The translations under genes and the position numbers were made by a program. Source: an uncultured Trueperaceae bacterium (lineage in GTDB: Bacteria > Deinococcota > Deinococci > Deinococcales > Trueperaceae). Taken from it: a stretch of 64,000 nt of DNA. The stretch is taken from contig CAVSGP010000015.1 in NCBI GenBank assembly GCA_963727505.1, positions 1 to 64,000 on the forward strand, written 5' to 3'. The notes beneath the pieces are model-generated. The model did not search any database. It was given only the letters and a program-made list of their open reading frames with translations, and had not been told where the DNA came from. Shown piece by piece: positions 23,101 to 62,528 of the stretch. Numbering within the stretch: position 1 is the first letter of the stretch; each line of letters begins with the position of its first letter.

Positions 23101-24978
23101 TTGATGCTGGTGGCGTCGGTCGGTGGTTGTGCTCTGGGTAGCCTCTACGTGGTGCGCGAGGTCCGCACCATCATCCTCGACAACGCCCTGGTCGAAACCG
23201 AGACCGCGTTGGCGATGCATCTGGACGCGTCGGCCGACGGCGGGTTGGTGGGTCCGCCGCTGAACCGCGCGGGAGCCTGGCTGGCGCTGATGGAGCACTA
23301 CGCCCAGGCTCCCGACACGATCGACGTGCGAGCGCTCGATGCCGCCGGCGTGGTGCGCCGGTCGCTGTCCAGTCCGTTGGGGGTCGCCCCGGTGACGCCC
23401 GGCGCCTGGCAGCGGGTGCGGGCCGGCCAGCCCCAGCGCACCTTGCGTGCAGGGGCCGCCGGGCCGGTGTTGGACGTGGTGGTCCCGGTGACGTTCGGGG
23501 AGGGGCCGGAGGGCACGGAGCGCGGCGCCGTCGAGATCGTGCGGAGCGGCCAGCCGGTGGCCGCCGCCCTGCGGCACGTCTCCCTCGAGATCGGGGTAGC
23601 CGGCGCGGTGCTCAGCGTGACGCTGGCGGCCCTGATCGTCTTCCTCAGCTACCTGGTTGCCTCACGCTCGTTCCGCGACCGGCTGACGGGCCTGCACAAC
23701 CTGCAACACTTCGAGTCCTCGGCCGTGGGCGAGCTGGCGCGGTTGGCCCGCCACGGTCGCAGCGCGGCGGTGTTGAGCATCGACGTGCGGCGTCTGCGCC
23801 ACGTCAACGATGCGCTGGGGCACCGCGCCGGCGACGCTCTGCTGCGGCTGGCCGCGGCGGCGCTGAAGAGCGAGGTGCGCCCCGGCGACTACCTGTCGCG
23901 CGTGGGCAGCCAGTTCCTGGTCCTGCTCGACGAGGTCGACACGCGTGGCGCCGAGGCGTTCGCGCGCCGCATCGCGGAGGCGCTGGGGCGCACCGTGCGC
24001 GTCAGCGGCGACATGCTGTGGCTCAGCGCCTCGATCGGCATCGCGATGTTCCCGGAGGACGGCAAGAACCTCGACGAGCTGCTGGCGAATGCCGACAGCG
24101 CCCTGAGAGAGTCGAAATCCCACGGCGTGTCCTACTGCACCTTCCGGGCCGGCCTCGCCCGCAGCACCCGCGAGTCGCTGGCGCTGGAGAGCGATCTCGC
24201 CTCCGCGCTGGCCATGGGCGAGCTGCTGCTGTTCGGGCAGCCCATCGTCCGCCTGGCGAGCGGGCAGGTCGCCGGCCTGGAGGCGCTGGTGCGCTGGCAA
24301 CACCCCGACCACGGCCTGCTCCCGCCCTCCGCCTTCATCCCTCAGGCCGAGGAGACGGGCTTGATCCGCGAGCTGGACCGCTGGGTGCTCGACGCCGCGG
24401 CGGCCGCCGTGGCCGCCTGGAGACGCAACGGCTTCCAGGGCTTCATCAGCGTCAACCTGTCGGGCCGGTCGCTCGGCGATAGCGGCCTTCCCGCGGCGGC
24501 GAGCCGCGTGCTGCAGCGGTACGGCGTGACCGCCGGATCGATCGTGCTGGAGGTCACCGAGACCGCCGCCATCCGCGATCTGGAGGGCTCCGGGAACGTC
24601 CTCGAAGCCCTCAAGGCGCTGGGCTTCCTCCTCGCGCTCGACGACTTCGGGACCGGCTACTCCTCGCTCGCCTACCTGCGCCGCCTGCCGGTCGACTTCA
24701 TCAAGATCGACCGCCAGTTCACCAAGCACCTGGTGCATCAGCCCAGCGATCAGCACCTGATCCGCGCGTTGATGATGTATGCGAGCGGTCTGGGGCTCGA
24801 CATCGTGGCCGAAGGGATCGAGGGGCCCGAGCAGCACGCCTGGCTGGAACGCGCCGGCATCCTGTACGGCCAGGGCTACCTGTACGGCCGGCCGCAGCCC
24901 CTGTCGGAACCCCCGGAGATGCTGCCCGTCCCCCCGCCGAGCGCTCCCGGCGACGGGTTCGGCGCCGTCGGAGACTGA
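23101..24978 (+). CDS. Membrane GGDEF(degenerate)-EAL protein, probable c-di-GMP phosphodiesterase
   Basis: 2 TM; A-site reads RVGSQF; EAL domain intact (EALVRW, EVTE, DDFGTGYSSL, IKID, AEGIE). Confidence 0.9.
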   Translation: MMLVASVGGCALGSLYVVREVRTIILDNALVETETALAMHLDASADGGLVGPPLNRAGAWLALMEHYAQAPDTIDVRALDAAGVVRRSLSSPLGVAPVTPGAWQRVRAGQPQRTLRAGAAGPVLDVVVPVTFGEGPEGTERGAVEIVRSGQPVAAALRHVSLEIGVAGAVLSVTLAALIVFLSYLVASRSFRDRLTGLHNLQHFESSAVGELARLARHGRSAAVLSIDVRRLRHVNDALGHRAGDALLRLAAAALKSEVRPGDYLSRVGSQFLVLLDEVDTRGAEAFARRIAEALGRTVRVSGDMLWLSASIGIAMFPEDGKNLDELLANADSALRESKSHGVSYCTFRAGLARSTRESLALESDLASALAMGELLLFGQPIVRLASGQVAGLEALVRWQHPDHGLLPPSAFIPQAEETGLIRELDRWVLDAAAAAVAAWRRNGFQGFISVNLSGRSLGDSGLPAAASRVLQRYGVTAGSIVLEVTETAAIRDLEGSGNVLEALKALGFLLALDDFGTGYSSLAYLRRLPVDFIKIDRQFTKHLVHQPSDQHLIRALMMYASGLGLDIVAEGIEGPEQHAWLERAGILYGQGYLYGRPQPLSEPPEMLPVPPPSAPGDGFGAVGD

Positions 24979-25243
24979 GAGCTTGCTGCGGCCGCCGTTC
25001 CGGCCGCGGTTGTGGCCGTCGCGAGCGGCGTCACGAACCTCACGAAGACTAAGAGAGACGTAAGCCACGCCCTGCCACAGTGGGGGCGTGGCAGGGGTGC
25101 GCCTGCGGGGGATCTGCAGGCGCATGCGGAGGGAACCGCATCCTGGGAGGCCCGAACCTCAGGGGAGCTTGCCCGGCCCCGCGCGGACACCGCGAGCCGC
25201 TGCGGAACGTCCGCAGCCTCTCGACGAGGAAGCGGCCACGAGC

Positions 25244-26425
25244 ATGAACTACATCGATTCGCGATCTGGACTCGCCGCGCTCAGACGGCTGAACGCCGGC
25301 CTCAGGGCCTGGCTGCGCGGTGTCTTCGAGCGTCCCAGCGGCAGCCACACCTCCATCCGGGCGGTGGTGGCGGACGTGCAGGGTGTCGAGCGCTTCCGCT
25401 GGATCCTGCGCAACATGCTGTGGTTCGGGCTGCTCGCGCACGTGCTGTTCACGGCGGTGTTCTTCGGGCTCGAGGTGTGGAGCCTGGCCGTCCTGAACGT
25501 CGCCAGTGTGCTGAGCTACCTGTTAGCGCTGCGCCTGCTGCACCGCGGACACGCCGACGCGCCCTTCGGCATCGGCGGGATCGAGGTGGCCGTACACGCG
25601 ACCCTGGTCACCCTGGCGTTGGGCGTGCGCCCCGGGTTCTTCATCTACCTCCCCCTCCTGACCGTCCTGACCTTCCTCAACCCGAAGTCGAGCCTGCGGA
25701 CCAAGATCCTGTTGGGGATCGCCCAGGCGCTGATGTTCATGGCGGTGGTGGCGGCAGCCGAGACCTTCCAGCCGATCCTCGCGCTCGACGTCGGAGCGCT
25801 GCGCCTGCTGATGGTCTTCAACGCGGCGCTGTTCGTCGGCTCCCTGTCGTTCCTGGCACACGTGGTGAGCGAGGCCGCCCGCAGCGCCGAGCGCGACCTG
25901 CGCGCCGCGCTGACCCGCGTCGACGAGCTGGCGCGCACCGACAGCCTGACCGGGCTGCTCAACCGCCGCGCCATGAGCGAGCTGCTCGACGCCGAGGCGG
26001 CGCGGGTCGAACGCCGCGGCCGGCCGTTCGCGGTGCTGGTGGCCGACCTCGACGACTTCAAGGGCATCAACGACGCCTACGGCCACCCGGTCGGCGACCA
26101 CGCCCTGCGCAGCGTCGCCTCGCGCCTGCTGGGGGCGGTGCGGGCGCAAGACCTGGTGGCGCGCTGGGGCGGCGAGGAGTTCCTGCTGCTGCTGCCCGAG
26201 ACCGACCAGGAGACCGCCCTGCACGTGGCCGAGCGGCTGCGCGCCGCCGTCTCCGAGCCTGCGCTGCAGCTCGACGGCGTTGAGTTCGGCGTCACCGCCA
26301 CGTTCGGGGTGGCCGTCCACAGCAAGGGTGGCACGGTCCTCGATTCGATCCGGCAGGCCGACCGCGCGCTCTACGCGGGCAAGACGCTCGGCAAGGACCG
26401 GGTGGTGAAGGGGACGGTGTGGTGA
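25244..26425 (+). CDS. Membrane-bound diguanylate cyclase
   Basis: ~6 TM; DSLTGLLNRR, DLDDFKGIND, RAQD I-site, RWGGEEF. Confidence 0.92.
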   Translation: MNYIDSRSGLAALRRLNAGLRAWLRGVFERPSGSHTSIRAVVADVQGVERFRWILRNMLWFGLLAHVLFTAVFFGLEVWSLAVLNVASVLSYLLALRLLHRGHADAPFGIGGIEVAVHATLVTLALGVRPGFFIYLPLLTVLTFLNPKSSLRTKILLGIAQALMFMAVVAAAETFQPILALDVGALRLLMVFNAALFVGSLSFLAHVVSEAARSAERDLRAALTRVDELARTDSLTGLLNRRAMSELLDAEAARVERRGRPFAVLVADLDDFKGINDAYGHPVGDHALRSVASRLLGAVRAQDLVARWGGEEFLLLLPETDQETALHVAERLRAAVSEPALQLDGVEFGVTATFGVAVHSKGGTVLDSIRQADRALYAGKTLGKDRVVKGTVW

Positions 26426-55117: not shown

Positions 55118-56596
55118 CTAGCGCTCGCCGACCTCCTCGAAGGCAACGCGCCGACCGTCCACCCGGAAGACGTTCCCCTCGATGCGCTCGATCCGTGGCT
55201 CGCCGACGAGCCACGCCGCCAACGCCTTGCGCTCGTCGGGGTCCAGCCAGGCCGGCGGGTCGGAGCAACCCTTGAAGCCCGCCACCAGGCCCAGATCCTG
55301 GAGGGCGCCTCGCTGCTCCGGCGTGAGCAGGTCGTAGCGCGAGCGGAAGAACGCCACGTCGGGGTCGGTATGCACCAGCGGACGCAGCCACAGCCGCGCG
55401 ACGCTGGTACGGATCGCGCCGCGCGCCGCAGGCCCCGTCGGGTCGTGGAGCAGCAGCCGGCGGTCCTCGTTGTCCCAGTACGGCGCCGTGTCCGGGCCGA
55501 CGCGAAGTCCGTCGGCCAGGCCGAGCGAGGCCAGCACCGGAGCCCCGCAGGCCAGCAGGTAGGCGTCCTCGCCGCAGGCCGCGCGCACCAGCGCCAGCGC
55601 CTCGCGGTAGGCCCGCTCGCGCCCCATCGGCCGGTGGCGCACGCCGGGCAGGGCGGCGGCGTACAGGAAGTCCAGCTTGAGCAGATCGAAGCCCCAGCCG
55701 CGGGCCCGCCGCACGGTCGCCTCGAGCCACACCCGCACCTCGGGATGCGTGGTGTCGAGGGCGTGGAAGGGCCCACCCCAGTTCACGCCCGCCGGCACCG
55801 GCTCGCCGGAAGCGTCGCGCAGCAACCAAGACGGATGGTCGCGGTGGAGGCGGCTGCCCGGGCGCGCGATGAACGGCGCCAGCCACAGCCCGGGCGTGAC
55901 ACCGGCGGCGCGGATGCGCGTCGCCAGGCTCTCCATGCCGGAGCCGAAGGCGTCGTTGGGCTCCCAGTCGCCGATGGCCCGCTGCCAGCCGTCGTCGATC
56001 TGGAAGGCGTCGAAGGCCAGCTCCCCCAGTCCGTCGAGGACCTCGAGCAGGGCGTCTTCAGAGATGTCGCGGTAGAAGCCGTACCAGCTCGACCACAGGC
56101 GCGGCGCGGCGGAGGCGCCGCGGCGCCCGAAGCGCTCGGCGAGCCGCTCGGCGTAGGCGCCGAACACCTCCGCCTCCGTTCCGAAGGCCACGAACCAGTC
56201 CCCCGGGCCCTGCTCGTAGCCACCCTCGATCCCGCGTGCGTCGGCCTCGACGCGAGCTTCCAGCTCGAGCGCGCCGAGCAGCAGCACGCCGTCGGCCGTG
56301 GCGAGGGCGCCCACCCCGCTGCCGCCGTGGCGGATGGCCTCGGCGTAGCGCGGGTCCTCCCCTTGCGGGCGGCGCGAGGGAGGCTCGATGGCGCGTACCG
56401 GCTCGGTGAGCTCGAGCCAGCGCGCCTCGCTCCAGCTCTGCCAGCCGTGCCGGTAGAAGCGCGTGGCGCCGCCGCCGGCCAGGGCGATCCGCTCGGCGCG
56501 GACCCGGAAGCCTCCCGTCACCGGCTCGGCGCCGGACGGCAGCTCGGCCGGGCCGAGCCTCACGGGCGCTTCCTCATCGGGGTCGCTCACCGGCAT
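55118..56596 (-). CDS. GH36 alpha-galactosidase
   Basis: GWQSWS, WSSWY, FQIDDGWQ, GLWLAPF, LKLDFLY, RVGPDTAP, DPDV. Confidence 0.9.
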   Translation of the reverse strand: MPVSDPDEEAPVRLGPAELPSGAEPVTGGFRVRAERIALAGGGATRFYRHGWQSWSEARWLELTEPVRAIEPPSRRPQGEDPRYAEAIRHGGSGVGALATADGVLLLGALELEARVEADARGIEGGYEQGPGDWFVAFGTEAEVFGAYAERLAERFGRRGASAAPRLWSSWYGFYRDISEDALLEVLDGLGELAFDAFQIDDGWQRAIGDWEPNDAFGSGMESLATRIRAAGVTPGLWLAPFIARPGSRLHRDHPSWLLRDASGEPVPAGVNWGGPFHALDTTHPEVRVWLEATVRRARGWGFDLLKLDFLYAAALPGVRHRPMGRERAYREALALVRAACGEDAYLLACGAPVLASLGLADGLRVGPDTAPYWDNEDRRLLLHDPTGPAARGAIRTSVARLWLRPLVHTDPDVAFFRSRYDLLTPEQRGALQDLGLVAGFKGCSDPPAWLDPDERKALAAWLVGEPRIERIEGNVFRVDGRRVAFEEVGER

Positions 56597-56634
56597 CGCT
56601 CACCGGCATCGCTCACCGGCATCGCTCATCGGCA
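56583..56634. repeat. 13-bp tandem repeat x4 at the GH36 5' end
   Basis: TCGCTCACCGGCA x3 plus TCGCTCATCGGCA. Confidence 0.9.
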
Positions 56635-57130
56635 TCGGGGTGTGCACGACCCCAGTCTACGGAGTGCCGCAGCAGGAACACAGCAGGGGCGCAGCAGGAA
56701 CACAGCAGGGCCGCAGCAGGGCCGACCAAACAGGGCCGAAGGAACAGGACCGAACGAACAGGACCGCGAGAACAAGGGGCACCGCGGCCCCGCCCTGCGA
56801 ACCCGCCCCGCGAACCCGCCCCGCGAACCCGCCCTGCGAACCGGGCCGCCGAAGCCTTGTTAAGGACCTAACCGCACCCCCTGTCTCGATGGGGTACCTT
56901 GCTCGCTGCCTCCCTCTGCGGAGGCCCCCAATCGATGGCCGCGGCGGCAAGAGAGCCCCGCACCATCACCCACGCCCCCTTCCGAGGGGTCTGGAGCGCG
57001 CAGCGGCCCCCCACGCTGCGCGCTCCGTTTTCGGGTCCCTCGGGCCCGGGGCCTGCCCGGGGCCTGCCCGGGGCGGCGAACGCCGGCGCCGCGGCCGCCT
57101 GGGCCCCGCGCCGCGCGATAGACTGGCTCC

Positions 57131-59209
57131 ATGGAAGCTGGGGCGGAGAAGCGGGAGGCGGACGCCGCCGACCGTACCCAAGCGTCCCCTTCACCTCCGA
57201 GCGCAGGCGCACCCGCCATCATCAACCTCAAGCGACAGTTGTACCTGTTCCTGCTGCCGGCGCTCGCGGTCGTGACGCTGGTCACCGGGCTGCTCGGCGC
57301 GCCTGGCTCCTACGATCGCCTCGTCCTGCCCATGCTCAGCGTCGTCCTTCTGGTGACGTTGCTGTTGGTGTCGTTCCGATGGGTCCAGCCGCGTCACTTG
57401 GAAGCAGCCCTCTTCAGCGTGTTCGCGGTGACCTACCTGAGCAAGCTGGGGGCCAGCCTCGCCGCCGGCACCACCGACCAGATCTTCGTGTGGACGCCCC
57501 TGCTGTACGCGCTGGCGTTCCTGCTGTTCGAGCCGTTGCCGGCGCTGCTCACCTCGGCGGGCGTGCTCACCGCATCGCTCGTTGTGACGGTGGCCGTGGC
57601 ACATCTCGCGCCGATCCCGGTGCGCAGCTTGTTCGAGTTCTACCTCGCGAACGTCCTACTCGTCCAGATCATCTACGGCATGGCCCGGCTGCGGAGCAAC
57701 GTCGCGTCCCTGCAGCGCGAGCTCCTGGACATGCAGCTGCTCGCCCATCAGGACATCCTGACGCGGCTCCCCAACCGCCGCGCGCTGCAGGACACCCTCG
57801 CCCAGGCGATCGCGTTGGCCGAACGCCGAATGCAGGGCGTGGCCGTCATCCTCTTCGACCTCGACGACTTCAAACGCGTCAACGACGAGCACGGCCACGA
57901 CGCCGGAGACCGCATCCTTCGCGATGTGGCGACCCGGGGCGAGAGCGTCCTGCGGCGCCCCGACACCCTGGGGCGCTGGGGCGGAGAGGAGTTCCTGGTC
58001 ATCGCGCCGGGGATCGACCTGCCCGGGGCCATGCGGGTGGCGGAGCGCCTGCGGGCGGCCCTCGGCTCCCACCCGTTCGGCGGCGTCGGAGCGGTGACGG
58101 CGAGCTACGGGGTGACGACCTACCACCCGGGCGACACCGCAGAGACGCTCCTGAAGCGCGCCGACGACGCGCTCTACCTCGCCAAGCAGAGCGGCAAGGA
58201 CCGGGTCGAGGCGCTGGTGCGCGAGAGGGTCCAGCACGTGGTGCTGCCCGTCCTCGCCCGTCCCTTCCCGCCATTGGAGCGCGACACCGACCAGCTCCAG
58301 CGCGACACCCTGACGTGGCTGAAGGACTTCGAGGTGGCCCCCTCCGAGACGCTCTACCGCTGGGTGGCGGCGGTGCAGCCCGGTTGGCTCGCCGGTCACA
58401 TGCAGCGCAGCAACGACGCCACCCGGCTGCAGATCGTGTCGGACTGGACGTTCTGGATGTTCCTGCACGACGACCACTGCGACACCAGCGCCGCCGGACG
58501 CCATCCCCGCTACCTGATCGACCTGCACCAACGCCTGCTCGGGGTTCTGGCCGGCGACGCGGCCGAGCCGCAGGACGGCGCCCTGGCGACGCTGCTGGCG
58601 GACCTGCGCGATCGCCTGGCGGTCGCCGGCGGCGACGACGCCGTCCCGCGCTTCGCCGACGCCACCGATCGCTACTTCGCGGCCACCCGCTGGGAGGCGG
58701 CCAACCGCGCGAGCAACACCACGCCCGACCTGGAGACCTACGAGCGCATGCGCCTGCTGACCAGCGGCCTGCCCGTGCACACGGTCCTGCTGGAGACCCT
58801 CGACGACGTGCCGGTGTCCGACCAACCGCTGGCGAAGGCTCTCTATGCAGCGGCCGATCGCGCCGTGTGCTGGGCGAACGACATCTACTCGCTGAACAAG
58901 GAGGTCCAGGAGGAGGACGTCCACAACCTGGTGGTCGCCCTGCAGGCGAGCCACCACCTGGGCCTCGACGACGCCCTCGAGCGCGCCGCCCGCATGCACG
59001 ACGAGCAGGTCGCGCGCTACCAGCAGCTCCGCGCCACGGTCGACGAGCAGGAAGGCCCGGAGCGCGAGGCCCTGGAAACCATCGCGCAGGCGCTGGAGGC
59101 GCGCATGGGCGCCAACGTGGCCTGGTCCGAGCGCTGCAGCCGCTACCGGGCCGCCGTCACCGTGCGGGTGGAGCCGGAGACCGAGGCGGTTCCCAAGGCT
59201 TCCGACTGA
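57131..59209 (+). CDS. Membrane diguanylate cyclase fused to a class I terpene synthase
   Basis: ~5-6 TM; DLDDFKRVND, RRPD, RWGGEEF; then DDHCD, NDIYSLNKE, WSERCSRY; TAGACT-6nt-ATG. Confidence 0.88.
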   Translation: MEAGAEKREADAADRTQASPSPPSAGAPAIINLKRQLYLFLLPALAVVTLVTGLLGAPGSYDRLVLPMLSVVLLVTLLLVSFRWVQPRHLEAALFSVFAVTYLSKLGASLAAGTTDQIFVWTPLLYALAFLLFEPLPALLTSAGVLTASLVVTVAVAHLAPIPVRSLFEFYLANVLLVQIIYGMARLRSNVASLQRELLDMQLLAHQDILTRLPNRRALQDTLAQAIALAERRMQGVAVILFDLDDFKRVNDEHGHDAGDRILRDVATRGESVLRRPDTLGRWGGEEFLVIAPGIDLPGAMRVAERLRAALGSHPFGGVGAVTASYGVTTYHPGDTAETLLKRADDALYLAKQSGKDRVEALVRERVQHVVLPVLARPFPPLERDTDQLQRDTLTWLKDFEVAPSETLYRWVAAVQPGWLAGHMQRSNDATRLQIVSDWTFWMFLHDDHCDTSAAGRHPRYLIDLHQRLLGVLAGDAAEPQDGALATLLADLRDRLAVAGGDDAVPRFADATDRYFAATRWEAANRASNTTPDLETYERMRLLTSGLPVHTVLLETLDDVPVSDQPLAKALYAAADRAVCWANDIYSLNKEVQEEDVHNLVVALQASHHLGLDDALERAARMHDEQVARYQQLRATVDEQEGPEREALETIAQALEARMGANVAWSERCSRYRAAVTVRVEPETEAVPKASD

Positions 59210-59378
59210 GCAACCCCGCCGGAGCAACACGGCGCGACGGCCACTGCCCCGGGGACCCCTGCCCGATCCTGCCCGAGTCCCTCCCGCCGAGCCTCACCCG
59301 CCCCGAGCCTCACCCGCCTGAGCGCCCCGCGCGGGTCGCCCCCCGATCCAGACGAGGCACGCAACCGAACGAAGGCAA

Positions 59379-59413
59379 CGGAAGGGGGGCGCCCATCGGG
59401 CGCCCCCCTTCCG
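59379..59413. terminator. Perfect 16-bp hairpin between convergent genes
   Basis: CGGAAGGGGGGCGCCC-ATC-GGGCGCCCCCCTTCCG. Confidence 0.7.
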
Positions 59414-59459
59414 CCCCCCGTAGCTTCCGGGGGCCGATCTGACGTTGCTCAGGCGTTCG

Positions 59460-60959
59460 CTACTGCGTCACCTTGAAGGCGAAGCGGAAGTGGAACTTGT
59501 GGGGGTGATCCTGCCAGGTGAGCACGGCCTGGCGGTACAGGAAGGGCTGCTCCTCGACCGCGCTGTAGTCCTTGTTTCGGTAGAACGACGGGTACAGGTC
59601 GATGTAGTGCCAGCCGGGCGCCCAGCTCGCAGTGACGGGCACGACCACATCGCCGTTGGTACTGAAACCGCAGCCATATCCCAGGTAAGTGTTGTCGATG
59701 ACGACGGCGAAGATGTTGGTGGTCTGGGTCCATCCCAGGCCCTTGACGTGGATCGTGATCTTGGTGCCGACCGGCCCTTCGGACGGCTGCAGCGGGAGCG
59801 CGACGACGCCGATGTCGAAGTGCGTGCTGGCCACGACCTTGTCACCGACCATGGCCTGGAGCCGGTGCTCGCCGCCGAGGGCGTCGGGGTACTGGAAGGG
59901 GAGGTCGAAGGCGCCGCTGGCGTCCGTCTTCACCGTCTTCACGGGCACGGTGGCCGCCGAGTAGAGCGACTCCGTCACGCGCGACCCACTCATGGTGGAG
60001 AAGGCGAGCGCTACGTCGCTGTTGGCAGGGAGGTCGCGACCGTGGATCTGCGCGTCGGCGAAGACACCGGCATGCTTGGGGTCGACCCACAGCTTCGGCC
60101 CGCTCGTGCTGGGCTCAGCACCGGCGATCGGCGCCTGGCTCTGCTGCTCGATCGGCTTGGGCATCACGGGCGCGCCGTCGGTGACCGTGAACATGAACTG
60201 CGGCTCGGGCAGGAAGCCGTACGGCGAGGAGGCGAGCGCCAGGTAGGGCGCGTCGAAGGGCGAGTTGCGAAGCTCGACGAGGTGCTTGCCGACCCTTCCC
60301 GTGGCCGGGATCACGAAGTTGGCCGTGCCGTGCGTCTCGACGGCGGTGATGAAACCCGTGATGGCGTTGTCGTAGGTGAGGGCGTACCAGCCAGCGATGT
60401 TGTTGATCGAGTCGATGCCGGTAACGGTCATGTGGATGTCCGTACCGACGGGTCCACTGTCCGGCGACATGGTGGTGTGCATCTGCACGTAGTAGCCGGC
60501 CTTGTTGACGTTGTCGCCGTTCTCCTGCACGTAGATGTCGTGGTTGCCCCCGAAGCCCTCGGGAACGGTGAAGGGAGCTGAGAAGCTACCGTCGGAGCCG
60601 ACCGTCACCGTCGCGAGCGGGACGCTCCGCTGCTCGAACTGGCGTCCCAGGAAGTTGCCGGTGTAGTCGCCGTCCTTCATCTCGAGCTTCCACTGGCCAT
60701 CGAAGGCAGCCCATACGACGTTCAGGCTGGCGCCGGACTCGAAGCCCGAGCCCGTCAGCGTCGCCTGCGATCCGACGATGCCCTTGGCGGGGGTCACCTG
60801 GACCTCACCCTTGAGGCCGTTGGGGAAGGTGGCCTGGCTGGTGGCCGCGTTGCCCTGGGCGAAGGCTGCCGCCAGGATCGTCGCGATGGCCAGTAGCAAT
60901 ACCGCACGTCCGGCCGTATCGAGGGCGTTTCTCAGGGGCTTGCGAAGGTTCCGTACCAT
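59460..60959 (-). CDS. Secreted protein with four Ig/IPT-like modules
   Basis: Signal peptide ending AFA-Q; repeated P..GPVGT.I-like module starts; YGCGFSTNG near the C-terminus. Confidence 0.75.
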   Translation of the reverse strand: MVRNLRKPLRNALDTAGRAVLLLAIATILAAAFAQGNAATSQATFPNGLKGEVQVTPAKGIVGSQATLTGSGFESGASLNVVWAAFDGQWKLEMKDGDYTGNFLGRQFEQRSVPLATVTVGSDGSFSAPFTVPEGFGGNHDIYVQENGDNVNKAGYYVQMHTTMSPDSGPVGTDIHMTVTGIDSINNIAGWYALTYDNAITGFITAVETHGTANFVIPATGRVGKHLVELRNSPFDAPYLALASSPYGFLPEPQFMFTVTDGAPVMPKPIEQQSQAPIAGAEPSTSGPKLWVDPKHAGVFADAQIHGRDLPANSDVALAFSTMSGSRVTESLYSAATVPVKTVKTDASGAFDLPFQYPDALGGEHRLQAMVGDKVVASTHFDIGVVALPLQPSEGPVGTKITIHVKGLGWTQTTNIFAVVIDNTYLGYGCGFSTNGDVVVPVTASWAPGWHYIDLYPSFYRNKDYSAVEEQPFLYRQAVLTWQDHPHKFHFRFAFKVTQ

Positions 60960-61002
60960 ACTGCGCTCCATTCTTTCAGTCGGGCCAGCGGCCCGCAGGG
61001 CG

Positions 61003-62528
61003 TCACTCCGTGACCGTGAAGACGTAGCGGAAGTGGAAGGGTGTTGGGGTGGTCGTGCCAGGTGAGCGTGGCCTGGCGGTAGAGGAAGGGCTGCTCGTCG
61101 GCCGCCCCGTAGTCGTTGTTGCGGTAGAAGGACGGGTAGAGGTCGATGAAGTGCGGGCCCGGCGCCCAGCTGGCAGCGATCGGGCACGATCACATCGCCG
61201 TTGGTGCTGAAGCCGCAGGCGTAGCCGTAGAAGGTGTTGTCGATCACCACGCGCGAAGATGTTGTTGGTCTGGGTCCAGCCGATACCCTTGACGTGGAGC
61301 GTGGATGGCGGTACCGACCGGCCCCTCGGCCGGCTCGAGCGGCAGCCCGACCGCCTGGATGGTGAAGTGCGCGGTCGCAACGACTGGTCGCTGTTCACCT
61401 TGGCCTCGAGCCGGTGCTGGCCACCGAGCGCGTCGGGGATCGGGAAGGGCGTGTCGAAGGCGCCCTCGGCGTCGGTGGTGACCGTCTTGAACGGCACCGT
61501 GGTCGCCTGAGTAAACCGGCCGCCGTGACCCGCGAACCGCTCATCTCGGTGTAGGCGAGCGTCCACGCTCGGCGTCGGCGGGCAGGCCGCGGCCGTGTAC
61601 CTGGGCGTCGCCGAAGACGCCGGCCGCCTCGGGATCGACCCACAGCTGGGGGCCGTCACGCGCTGGGCTCGGCGCCGGGCGACCGCCGGCGGCTCCTGCT
61701 GGGCGATGGGCGCGGGCATCACCGGCGCACCGTCGGTCACGGTGAAGATGAACTGTGGCGAGGGCAGCTTGGCGTAGGGGGATGAGGTGAGCGCGAGATA
61801 GGGCTGTCCGAAGGGCGACCTGAGCAGCTCGATGACGTGCTTTCCCACGCGGCCGGTGGCGGGGATGACGACGTCGGCGGTGCCGTGCGTGGTGACGGCG
61901 GTGATGAAGCCGGTGTTGGTGCTGTCGTAGAGTGACGCCATACCAGCCGGAGATGTTGTTGAGGTCGGTCGAGGCCGGTGACGTGTGAGGGTGATGTCGG
62001 AACCGAGCGGGACCGCTCTGGGGCGTCATTGTGGCGTGCATGCGGACGCTAGAAGCCGGACTTGTTGATGTTGGTCGCCGTTCTCGCGCACGTAGATGTC
62101 GTGCGTCCCGCCGAAGCCCTCGGGCACGAGAATGGGTAGCTGAGAAGCTTCCGTCCGAGCCGACCGTCACCGTGGCGAGCGGGACCGAGCGGCTGATGGA
62201 ACTGACGGCCGAGGAAGTTGCCGGTCGTACTCGCCGTCCTTCATCTCCAGCTTCCAGCTGCCGTCGAAGGCGCCCCATACGACGTTCGAAGCTGGCCCCG
62301 GCGTCGAAGCCGGAGCCCTGCAACGTCGCCTGCGATCCGACGAAGCCCTTGGCTGGGGGCCACCTGGAGTTCGCCCTTGAGGCCGTTCGGGAAGGTCAAT
62401 TGGCTGGTGGCAGCACTGCCCTGCGCCGAGGCGCTGGCGAACAACATGCCGACGGCCAGGAAGAGTACCGCTAGCAGGGTGCGGGCACCCATACGGGTTC
62501 CACGAATGCTTGTGTTCACGAGTTCCAT
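61003..62528 (-). pseudogene. Paralog of 59460-60959 with many frameshifts (pseudogene or sequencing errors)
   Basis: Fragments TFPNGLKGE, GFITAVTTHGTA..PATGRVGKH, KGIGWTQTNNIF, YACGFSTNGD, FHFRYVF in different frames; AAGGAG RBS. Confidence 0.7.

Follow-up and report, generated by a model that had tools for sequence, protein, structure and literature searches.

A membrane diguanylate cyclase joined to a class I terpene synthase in a conserved protein family of Deinococcales-type bacteria

The DNA analysed here is the stretch from position 1 to 64,000 of contig CAVSGP010000015.1 (assembly GCA_963727505.1) of an uncultured Trueperaceae bacterium; these 64,000 nucleotides are called the window throughout. 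Near its end, at 57131..59209 on the + strand, lies a single gene for a 692-residue protein in which an N-terminal membrane domain and a GGDEF diguanylate cyclase domain are followed by a class I terpene synthase (TS) domain. The coding sequence is delimited by its open reading frame (ORF), its Pfam and NCBIfam matches, a uniform base composition and contigs from other sequencing runs. That one gene encodes both domains with all of their signature residues, that the architecture is conserved and that both domains have the expected folds is established. On these grounds the fusion protein is probably one bifunctional membrane-anchored enzyme that makes both cyclic di-GMP (c-di-GMP) and a sesquiterpene, with the two syntheses answering to the same membrane input.

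The frame has no internal stop in its 692 codons. Its G+C contents at the three codon positions (GC1/2/3) are 0.74/0.45/0.92, and GC3 stays at 0.92-0.97 in a single phase from 57250 to 58900, so there is no change of frame at the domain junction. The uninterrupted ORF reported in the original prediction, which was made from the DNA letters and a list of their ORFs, was thus borne out. The fusion could nevertheless be an artefact, two genes united by a frameshift, a mis-assembly or a chimeric contig, and high-GC genomes do yield long spurious ORFs. The present genome has a G+C content of about 70% and, as expected from this, such frames overlap the fusion gene: ORFs at 56899-59442 (+) and 57656-59230 (-) were considered as real genes and rejected, as they have no Pfam match and the wrong codon-position GC. 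Against an artefact stand the uniform GC3 in one frame and the Logan contigs of four metagenome runs, which come from two studies and were compared with the window over 56900-59450 (one of the runs may be the source sample). Record 18 of X3 covers 58047-58592 with neither a differing letter nor a gap, and records 3 and 4 of X1 span 58108-58260 and 58231-58399 without any difference. No indel was listed within the coding sequence; those found lie outside it, at 56952-57046 and 59360. The junction is therefore traversed unaltered, with no stop and no indel over 58047-58592, by contigs from the runs of two studies. As the identical architecture also recurs in 30 further protein clusters and, among the genomes of the phylum scan given below, in 20 besides the present one, the artefact explanation, to which we would assign practically no probability, is refuted.

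The fusion is a conserved family rather than a one-off and has so far been seen in Deinococcales-type genomes only. When 5.8 billion proteins were searched by a word index, 30 further clusters came up that carry both PF19086 (the TS family) and PF00990 (GGDEF), with identities of 36-91% over 71-100% of the query, whereas the matches ranking below these clusters cover the GGDEF part only. Fusion proteins are thus already present in public databases under automatic names, the few named ones being 'diguanylate cyclase (GGDEF)-like protein [Deinococcus metalli]', 'terpene synthase family protein [Deinococcus sp.]' and 'diguanylate cyclase, partial [Deinococcales bacterium]'. When 364 genomes of the window's phylum were scanned with a TS profile and then with a profile made from the family alignment, a TS domain scored above the cut-off in 22 genomes, and in 21 of these it was part of a fusion. 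The 22 comprise 19 genomes with a full-length fusion ORF, two with fusions cut by contig ends (in G103 at one contig end, in G045 with the halves on two contig ends) and one with a stand-alone TS, a distant relative of 315 residues and 96 bits in G329. Homologues that always occur as two genes would have spoken against the fusion; instead both domains are found together in all 30 other clusters and in 21 of the 22 TS-bearing genomes. The fusion is present in two families of the order. A search for longer proteins with the TS domain returned 13 proteins, all of the fusion family, which is weak evidence against GGDEF-TS fusions elsewhere. For the conservation analysis 29 full-length members were aligned (alignment A1; the partial sequences P0008 and P0012 were left out). 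A contig search with A1, which was dominated by the GGDEF peptide pattern, gave at least 603 relatives, the best 80 of which match the membrane and GGDEF part only. Note that G003 carries the fusion gene twice with identical scores (C1:31854-33893 and C9:103-2142), either a real duplication or an assembly duplicate.

The N-terminal integral-membrane domain (residues 28-206; 57212..57748, +) was delimited in an AlphaFold2 (AF2) model built from the 29-row alignment. DSSP assigned six helices to it (28-54, 61-81, 87-112, 116-132, 135-159 and 164-206), in line with the roughly five to six transmembrane helices proposed from the sequence, and the last of these is long and extends into the GGDEF domain. 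No Pfam family matched the N-terminus of the window protein, even at E 10. Two of the 29 family members match MASE6 (PF20966) with E 0.01 or lower (P0010 reaches 29.8 bits, the cut-off being 27.4), and the language-model neighbours of the domain in Atlas are mixed MASE2/6/7/8-type proteins with modest scores of 0.87-0.92. The domain looks like a MASE-type sensor, and we leave its MASE family unspecified.

The GGDEF domain (residues 205-361; 57743..58213, +) is matched by PF00990 at residues 205-358 (E 5.2e-42; 143.8 bits against a cut-off of 23.8) and by TIGR00254 of NCBIfam (143.4 bits against 37.4), and the NCBIfam matches of this half include SiaD, PleD, AdrA and DgcN. Foldseek aligned it with the coiled coil plus GGDEF of DgcB (6ttr, template modelling score (TMt) 0.84) and also with 5llw and 7e6g, the matched proteins being DgcB, SiaD and a phytochrome-linked cyclase. 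The catalytic elements named in the original prediction are all in the translation: DLDDFKRVND, the active-site GGEEF (residues 284-288; 57980..57994, +), which lies within RWGGEEF, and, five residues before GGEEF, the RxxD inhibitory site (I-site) RRPD (residues 275-278; 57953..57964, +). Throughout A1 the residues D243, D245, F247, K248, N251, D252, G255, H256, G259, D260, R275, R282-F288 (RWGGEEF) and K352 are invariant and R358 is nearly so. By analogy with PleD we take D243, D245, N251, D252, D260, K352, R282 and R358 to bind the metal and GTP. The GGDEF half is thus predicted to be a catalytically competent diguanylate cyclase.

The class I TS domain occupies residues 365-674 (58223..59152, +), as judged from Pfam, a phmmer search of the PDB and Foldseek. 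PF19086 (Terpene_syn_C_2) matches residues 438-628 with E 6.6e-41 and 140.7 bits against a cut-off of 23.7, and it also matches 29 of the 29 aligned family members; profile scanning thus finds the cyclase and the synthase in a single protein. The Asp-rich motif DDHCD (residues 447-451; 58469..58483, +) lies in WMFLHDDHCD (residues 442-451; 58454-58483), and the NSE triad reads NDIYSLNKE (residues 583-591; 58877..58903, +). The candidate pyrophosphate-sensor Arg is R541 (58751..58753, +) of YERMR, 42 residues before N583; it does not vary in A1, and its aligned counterpart in the Roseiflexus (+)-T-muurolol synthase is the Arg of ..AARLFSG.., numbered R-175 in the description of that enzyme (PMC5082573). 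The RY pair (residues 671-672; 59141..59146, +) closes WSERCSRY (residues 665-672; 59123-59146). All four motifs were read from the translation where the original prediction had placed them.

The same Roseiflexus enzyme heads the structural comparisons. Over residues 384-673, phmmer gave (+)-T-muurolol synthase (9hqd, E 6e-47) as the best PDB sequence, followed by the 10-epi-cubebol, selinadiene, epi-cubenol and avermitilol synthases, all of them sesquiterpene cyclases. In the AF2 model residues 387-672 form an all-helical domain with pLDDT (the model's per-residue confidence) mostly above 90, and Foldseek superposed the TS half on the Roseiflexus T-muurolol synthase structures 9hqd, 9hr0 and 9hqi with TMt 0.89-0.90, a root-mean-square deviation of 2.0-2.2 A and 33% identity, so that the C-terminus does model as a class I TS fold. 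The Roseiflexus castenholzii enzyme converts farnesyl diphosphate (FPP) to (+)-T-muurolol and carries DDQCD, NDVLSYPKE, R-175 and an RY pair (PMC5082573). By sequence the TS half is most like the (+)-T-muurolol and the cubebol/cadinene-type cyclases; it is predicted to be a catalytically competent class I sesquiterpene synthase, and its substrate is likely FPP. The genome has two polyprenyl synthase genes that could supply the substrate, and the fusion holds its sole TS domain.

Both sets of catalytic residues are under purifying selection. In the TS half D447, D448, C450, D451, R541, N583, D584, S587, K590, E591, W665, S666, R671 and Y672 are invariant in A1. Every one of the 31 clusters and of the 18 genome ORFs has the patterns GG[DE]EF, DDxCD, NDxxSxxKE and WxxxxxRY, and the R541 context R..T.G is present in all 31 clusters and 17 of the 18 ORFs. 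RxxD stands at the canonical distance in 29 of the 31 clusters (it is missing in P0019 and P0020) and in all 18 ORFs; in general, many but not all GGDEF diguanylate cyclases have such a site. The pairwise identities of the membrane, GGDEF and TS parts covary across 406 pairs (r 0.93-0.96), which indicates that domains have not been swapped, although relatedness alone could explain the correlation.

The two halves meet at residues 362-386 (58214..58288, +; VLPVLARPF..). A Pro-rich segment of the IPxxxxPF type likewise opens the stand-alone relatives of the TS domain (for example P0122), and the PDB alignment begins at residue 19 of T-muurolol synthase, which corresponds to residue 384 of the fusion; the junction is therefore the N-terminal segment of the TS domain. 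Of the short linker described in the original prediction, it stands that the domains adjoin at this place, but the stretch belongs to the TS domain itself and is no free linker. P373, L375 and P378 are invariant in A1, and all 29 members keep a distance of 12-14 residues between V359, in the last GGDEF strand, and P373, with intervening sequence that varies. In the AF2 model (mean pLDDT 85.9; pTM, its whole-model confidence, 0.59) the six helices of residues 28-206 are followed by an alpha/beta GGDEF domain, which ends at residue 361, and by the all-helical domain at residues 387-672. Prediction of a two-copy complex of residues 195-692 with A1 gave a score of 0.00 against a mark of 0.42, which makes no call either way on a dimer. 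In class I synthases closure of the active site moves the N-terminal segment, and the junction is presumably the segment that caps the active site upon closure. Given such a segment and a junction of fixed length, conformational coupling of the two halves would be plausible.

This arrangement also suits a different reading, in which the TS domain is a sensor that binds FPP or another prenyl diphosphate and tunes the cyclase via the junction, turnover being slow or incidental. The conserved DDxCD, NSE, Arg and RY residues are those that bind the Mg3-diphosphate unit, and the segment that moves on closure is here welded to the GGDEF domain. However, the sensor domains of GGDEF proteins are normally N-terminal, and a membrane sensor already occupies that position. 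Moreover, the TS half is 33% identical to a proven cyclase and nearly superposable on it, it is the only terpene synthase of the genome, and in three genomes a cytochrome P450 of the terpene-tailoring kind adjoins the fusion gene. We consider a sensor role improbable, and the bifunctional enzyme remains the preferred reading.

The history of the fusion was traced through its TS domain. Searched alone against 1.84 billion representatives, this domain had 2013 matches; among the best 150 of them six are of fusion length and nearly all the rest are stand-alone proteins of about 330 residues. A first tree (LG+G4) of 107 rows held 31 fusion TS domains, 75 stand-alone proteins from P0122-P0200 with an allowed length of 290-420 residues (P0135, P0144 and P0159 were not included) and the G329 protein. 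All fusions fell into two strongly supported groups within one weakly resolved cluster. P0153, the sole seemingly stand-alone row inside the fusion groups, starts with the last helix of a GGDEF domain and is thus a truncated fusion. In a 51-row TS tree a single branch with SH-aLRT (a branch-support test) 84 separates the 32 fusion rows from all others, which is consistent with a single origin of the fusion. Related genomes contain proteins with the membrane-plus-GGDEF part only (L008-L010; 250-268 bits over profile positions 8-367), and a paralogue within the window, a 445-residue membrane GGDEF protein at 25088-26422 (+), is 38% identical to residues 109-359 of the fusion. In the simplest history, a membrane diguanylate cyclase that was already present would have gained a TS gene behind it. 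Domain combinations also occur in two relatives of the TS domain: P0144 contains a pair of TS domains, and P0247 (478 residues) joins an N-terminal SRPBCC/polyketide-cyclase-like domain (PF10604) to a TS domain, another uncommon TS fusion.

The neighbourhoods of 14 fusion loci were compared over about 6 kb on each side. In three of three genomes of one genus (G274, G275 and G276) the divergent neighbour is a cytochrome P450 (464 residues, PF00067 E 1.6e-85) at L042 4586-5980 (-) and L043 8120-9484 (+) and, in G276, with its start at the edge of locus L019; it is separated from the fusion gene by 64 bp in G274 and by 94 bp in G275. This pair looks like a minimal cluster of a terpene synthase plus P450. 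In six genomes a PAS-(GAF)-GGDEF-EAL gene adjoins the fusion, upstream on the same strand in G112, G081, G102, G149 and G126 and tail to tail in G019. A P450 would be expected beside a working TS and an EAL protein beside a working cyclase, and so these neighbours point to a tie of the fusion protein to both terpene and c-di-GMP metabolism.

The window's genome has ten EAL matches and 21 matches to the fusion protein (among the matches listed, all on the membrane/GGDEF part), and no PilZ domain was matched in this 97% complete genome; non-PilZ receptors of c-di-GMP must therefore exist. Deinococcus radiodurans is not among the control genomes where PilZ was found. The fusion protein could itself be such a receptor if its GGDEF domain served mainly to bind c-di-GMP at RxxD and thereby switch the TS, its own cyclase activity being secondary. 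Besides the lack of a PilZ match, the I-site kept in 29 of 31 clusters and all 18 genome ORFs and the adjoining PAS-GGDEF-EAL genes of six genomes would fit such gating. Receptor-type GGDEF domains that have degenerated usually lose catalytic residues; here, in contrast, GGEEF and all the listed catalytic residues are invariant, and the two clusters that lost the I-site Asp retain GGEEF. We rate a c-di-GMP-gated TS as somewhat less probable even than a TS domain that only senses, and continue with an enzyme active in both halves.

In such an enzyme the six-helix MASE-like membrane domain and the long helix would feed into the GGDEF cyclase. Diguanylate cyclases must work as dimers, and the dimer would be formed via the membrane domain and the long helix, as in coiled-coil GGDEF enzymes. 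The GGDEF half would convert two GTP to c-di-GMP and two pyrophosphates, governed by whatever the membrane domain senses, and RxxD would be its product feedback site. The C-terminal domain would ionise FPP at the membrane surface and form a cadinane-type or related sesquiterpene. As the two halves share a single membrane sensor and are joined at a fixed length, we infer that the same input may drive both products; the cell would make or gate a second messenger and a diffusible hydrophobic terpene together. The halves may also regulate each other, by I-site control or with the TS acting as sensor. In its full form, this proposal is a two-output device in which one sensor and a rigid junction govern both c-di-GMP and a membrane-permeant sesquiterpene signal and each activity regulates the other, for instance with c-di-GMP at RxxD gating terpene synthesis or TS closure on FPP gating the cyclase. 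We regard so complete a coupling as possible but doubtful. A bolder variant, in which a guanine nucleotide serves the synthase domain as prenyl acceptor, seems very far-fetched.

Several observations weigh against such a bifunctional enzyme. The pTM of 0.59 leaves the mutual arrangement of the domains without a confident prediction and the model without a fixed interface. No neighbour is common to all 14 fusion loci; in the window only an alpha-galactosidase-like gene and an uncharacterised gene adjoin the fusion. The occurrence is patchy (five of the ten genomes of the window's own genus), which indicates an accessory function. The I-site Asp is absent from P0019 and P0020, so feedback through RxxD would not be universal in the family. 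The TS half scores far under every product-specific NCBIfam cut-off (bits against cut-off: selinadiene synthase 108/450, 4-epi-cubebol 108/500, isoafricanol 102/500, delta-cadinene 83/400 and epi-isozizaene 65/675), and the protein is therefore classed only as a sesquiterpene-synthase-like class I enzyme. A domain that merely binds prenyl diphosphate would also keep the metal and diphosphate motifs.

The first two of these points would equally suit a mere tether, in which both halves are active but uncoupled and the fusion does no more than co-express the TS with an unrelated cyclase and localise it to the membrane; the loci have no effector or pathway gene in common, and the stand-alone TS relatives of about 330 residues are ordinary soluble enzymes. 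An accidental tether would, however, be expected to vary or break, whereas here members as little as 36% identical are still fused, no split form was found, and the junction is fixed at 12-14 residues with no flexible linker. We consider the uncoupled tether unlikely, although less so than either the sensor or the gated synthase, and retain the enzyme with a common membrane input as the favoured reading.

Upstream of the fusion gene a -10-like hexamer, TAGACT (57119..57124, +), lies 6 nt before the ATG and is a candidate leaderless promoter. Its TAG is the in-frame stop that closes the fusion frame upstream, and ATG 57131 is therefore the sole start that keeps the conserved N-terminus. No Shine-Dalgarno-like run precedes this ATG. 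A TANNNT hexamer stands 6-8 nt before the start in six of the 14 loci (the window, L039, L047, L049, L050 and L051); in the remaining eight the start was not placeable or the hexamer was not seen. A consensus scan near the fusion gene matched neither a sigma-70 promoter nor a terminator. Downstream, a G+C-rich hairpin with a stem of 15-16 bp (59379..59413) lies between convergent genes, 170 nt past the fusion stop and about 47 nt past the stop of the gene at 59460-61250 (-). Its folding energy is -43 kcal/mol (z -4.5; 0 of 200 shuffles folded as well), it lacks a T-run and it was not called by the terminator scan. Thus, of the original proposal that the gene has its own leaderless -10 and a hairpin behind it, the hexamer and the hairpin are both there, but the hairpin is nearer to the convergent gene's stop and has no T-run. 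It may be a shared terminator and probably serves the convergent gene as much as the fusion gene. An Rfam scan of 56400-59600 with E up to 1 had no match, and we conclude that this region holds no riboswitch.

The 535-bp upstream intergenic region is packed with short tandem repeats at 56583-56853 and 57044-57074 (13-mer x4.2, 22-mer x2.5, 14-mer x3.6, another 13-mer x4.2 and 11-mer x2.8). In one X1 contig a unit of the 11-mer array is missing (11 bases at 57046), and the copy number thus varies between strains. Downstream of the fusion stop a 16-mer stands in two copies (59287-59318), and the X1 and X3 contigs have a 14-base insertion (a repeat of the local GCAACCGAACGAAG) after 59360, just before the hairpin. 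The divergent upstream neighbour in the window is the alpha-galactosidase-like gene (55118-56596, -), beyond which lie a SatP-type transporter, an acetyl-CoA synthetase and two M16 peptidases. The convergent gene at 59460-61250 (-) encodes 596 residues with GC3 0.86 and has only a sub-threshold IPT/TIG match (E 0.0013); it is kept beside the fusion in G003. A second pair of c-di-GMP genes in the window consists of a GGDEF-EAL gene at 23101-24975 (+; 625 residues) followed by the membrane GGDEF gene at 25088-26422 (+).

Class I terpene synthases of bacteria are known to be soluble and to be regulated chiefly through transcription, and the known fusion partners of diguanylate cyclases are sensors or c-di-GMP phosphodiesterases. 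The conserved weld of a TS behind a membrane sensor suggests a terpene, possibly volatile or membrane-active, that is tied directly to second-messenger signalling, and it could reveal a novel class of c-di-GMP output or a novel mode of post-translational control over terpene synthesis. If the two-output device were real, the TS would be a direct c-di-GMP effector in a genome where no PilZ was found, and this would be the first link of c-di-GMP signalling to a volatile or terpenoid output. The architecture flags the only terpene synthase of these Deinococcus-type genomes; it would surprise c-di-GMP and terpene specialists alike and is directly testable. The original prediction knew of no described GGDEF-terpene synthase fusion, and we likewise found no description of such a protein in the open full-text literature at the level of listings and abstracts. 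What appears to be new is the conserved domain architecture; taken singly, the two halves are typical of their superfamilies, and the whole is not a categorically new system.

Each part of the fusion has known counterparts. The TS half resembles the (+)-T-muurolol synthase of Roseiflexus castenholzii (9hqd, 9hqi, 9hr0 and other structures; PMC5082573) in DDxCD, NDxxSxxKE, the sensor Arg and RY. The Roseiflexus synthase is a soluble stand-alone protein of about 330 residues, whereas the TS half of the fusion sits behind membrane and GGDEF domains. With the MASE-type membrane cyclases (AdrA/DgcC type), DgcB and SiaD the fusion shares a multi-helix membrane domain, a long helix and a GGDEF domain with GGEEF and RxxD. 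Those MASE-type and coiled-coil enzymes end after GGDEF or run on into EAL, whereas the fusion runs on into a TS; to our knowledge no membrane or coiled-coil diguanylate cyclase continues into a biosynthetic enzyme. GGDEF-EAL tandems, the usual example of such a fusion, likewise have a second catalytic domain behind GGDEF, but theirs degrades the same messenger whereas that of the fusion belongs to isoprenoid metabolism. Multi-domain terpene synthases are known in geosmin synthase, with its two TS domains, and in the fungal prenyltransferase-cyclase fusions. These resemble the fusion in that a class I domain is joined to another domain in one polypeptide; in them, however, the partner acts in the same pathway, by substrate supply or a second cyclisation, whereas here it is a signalling enzyme with a membrane anchor.

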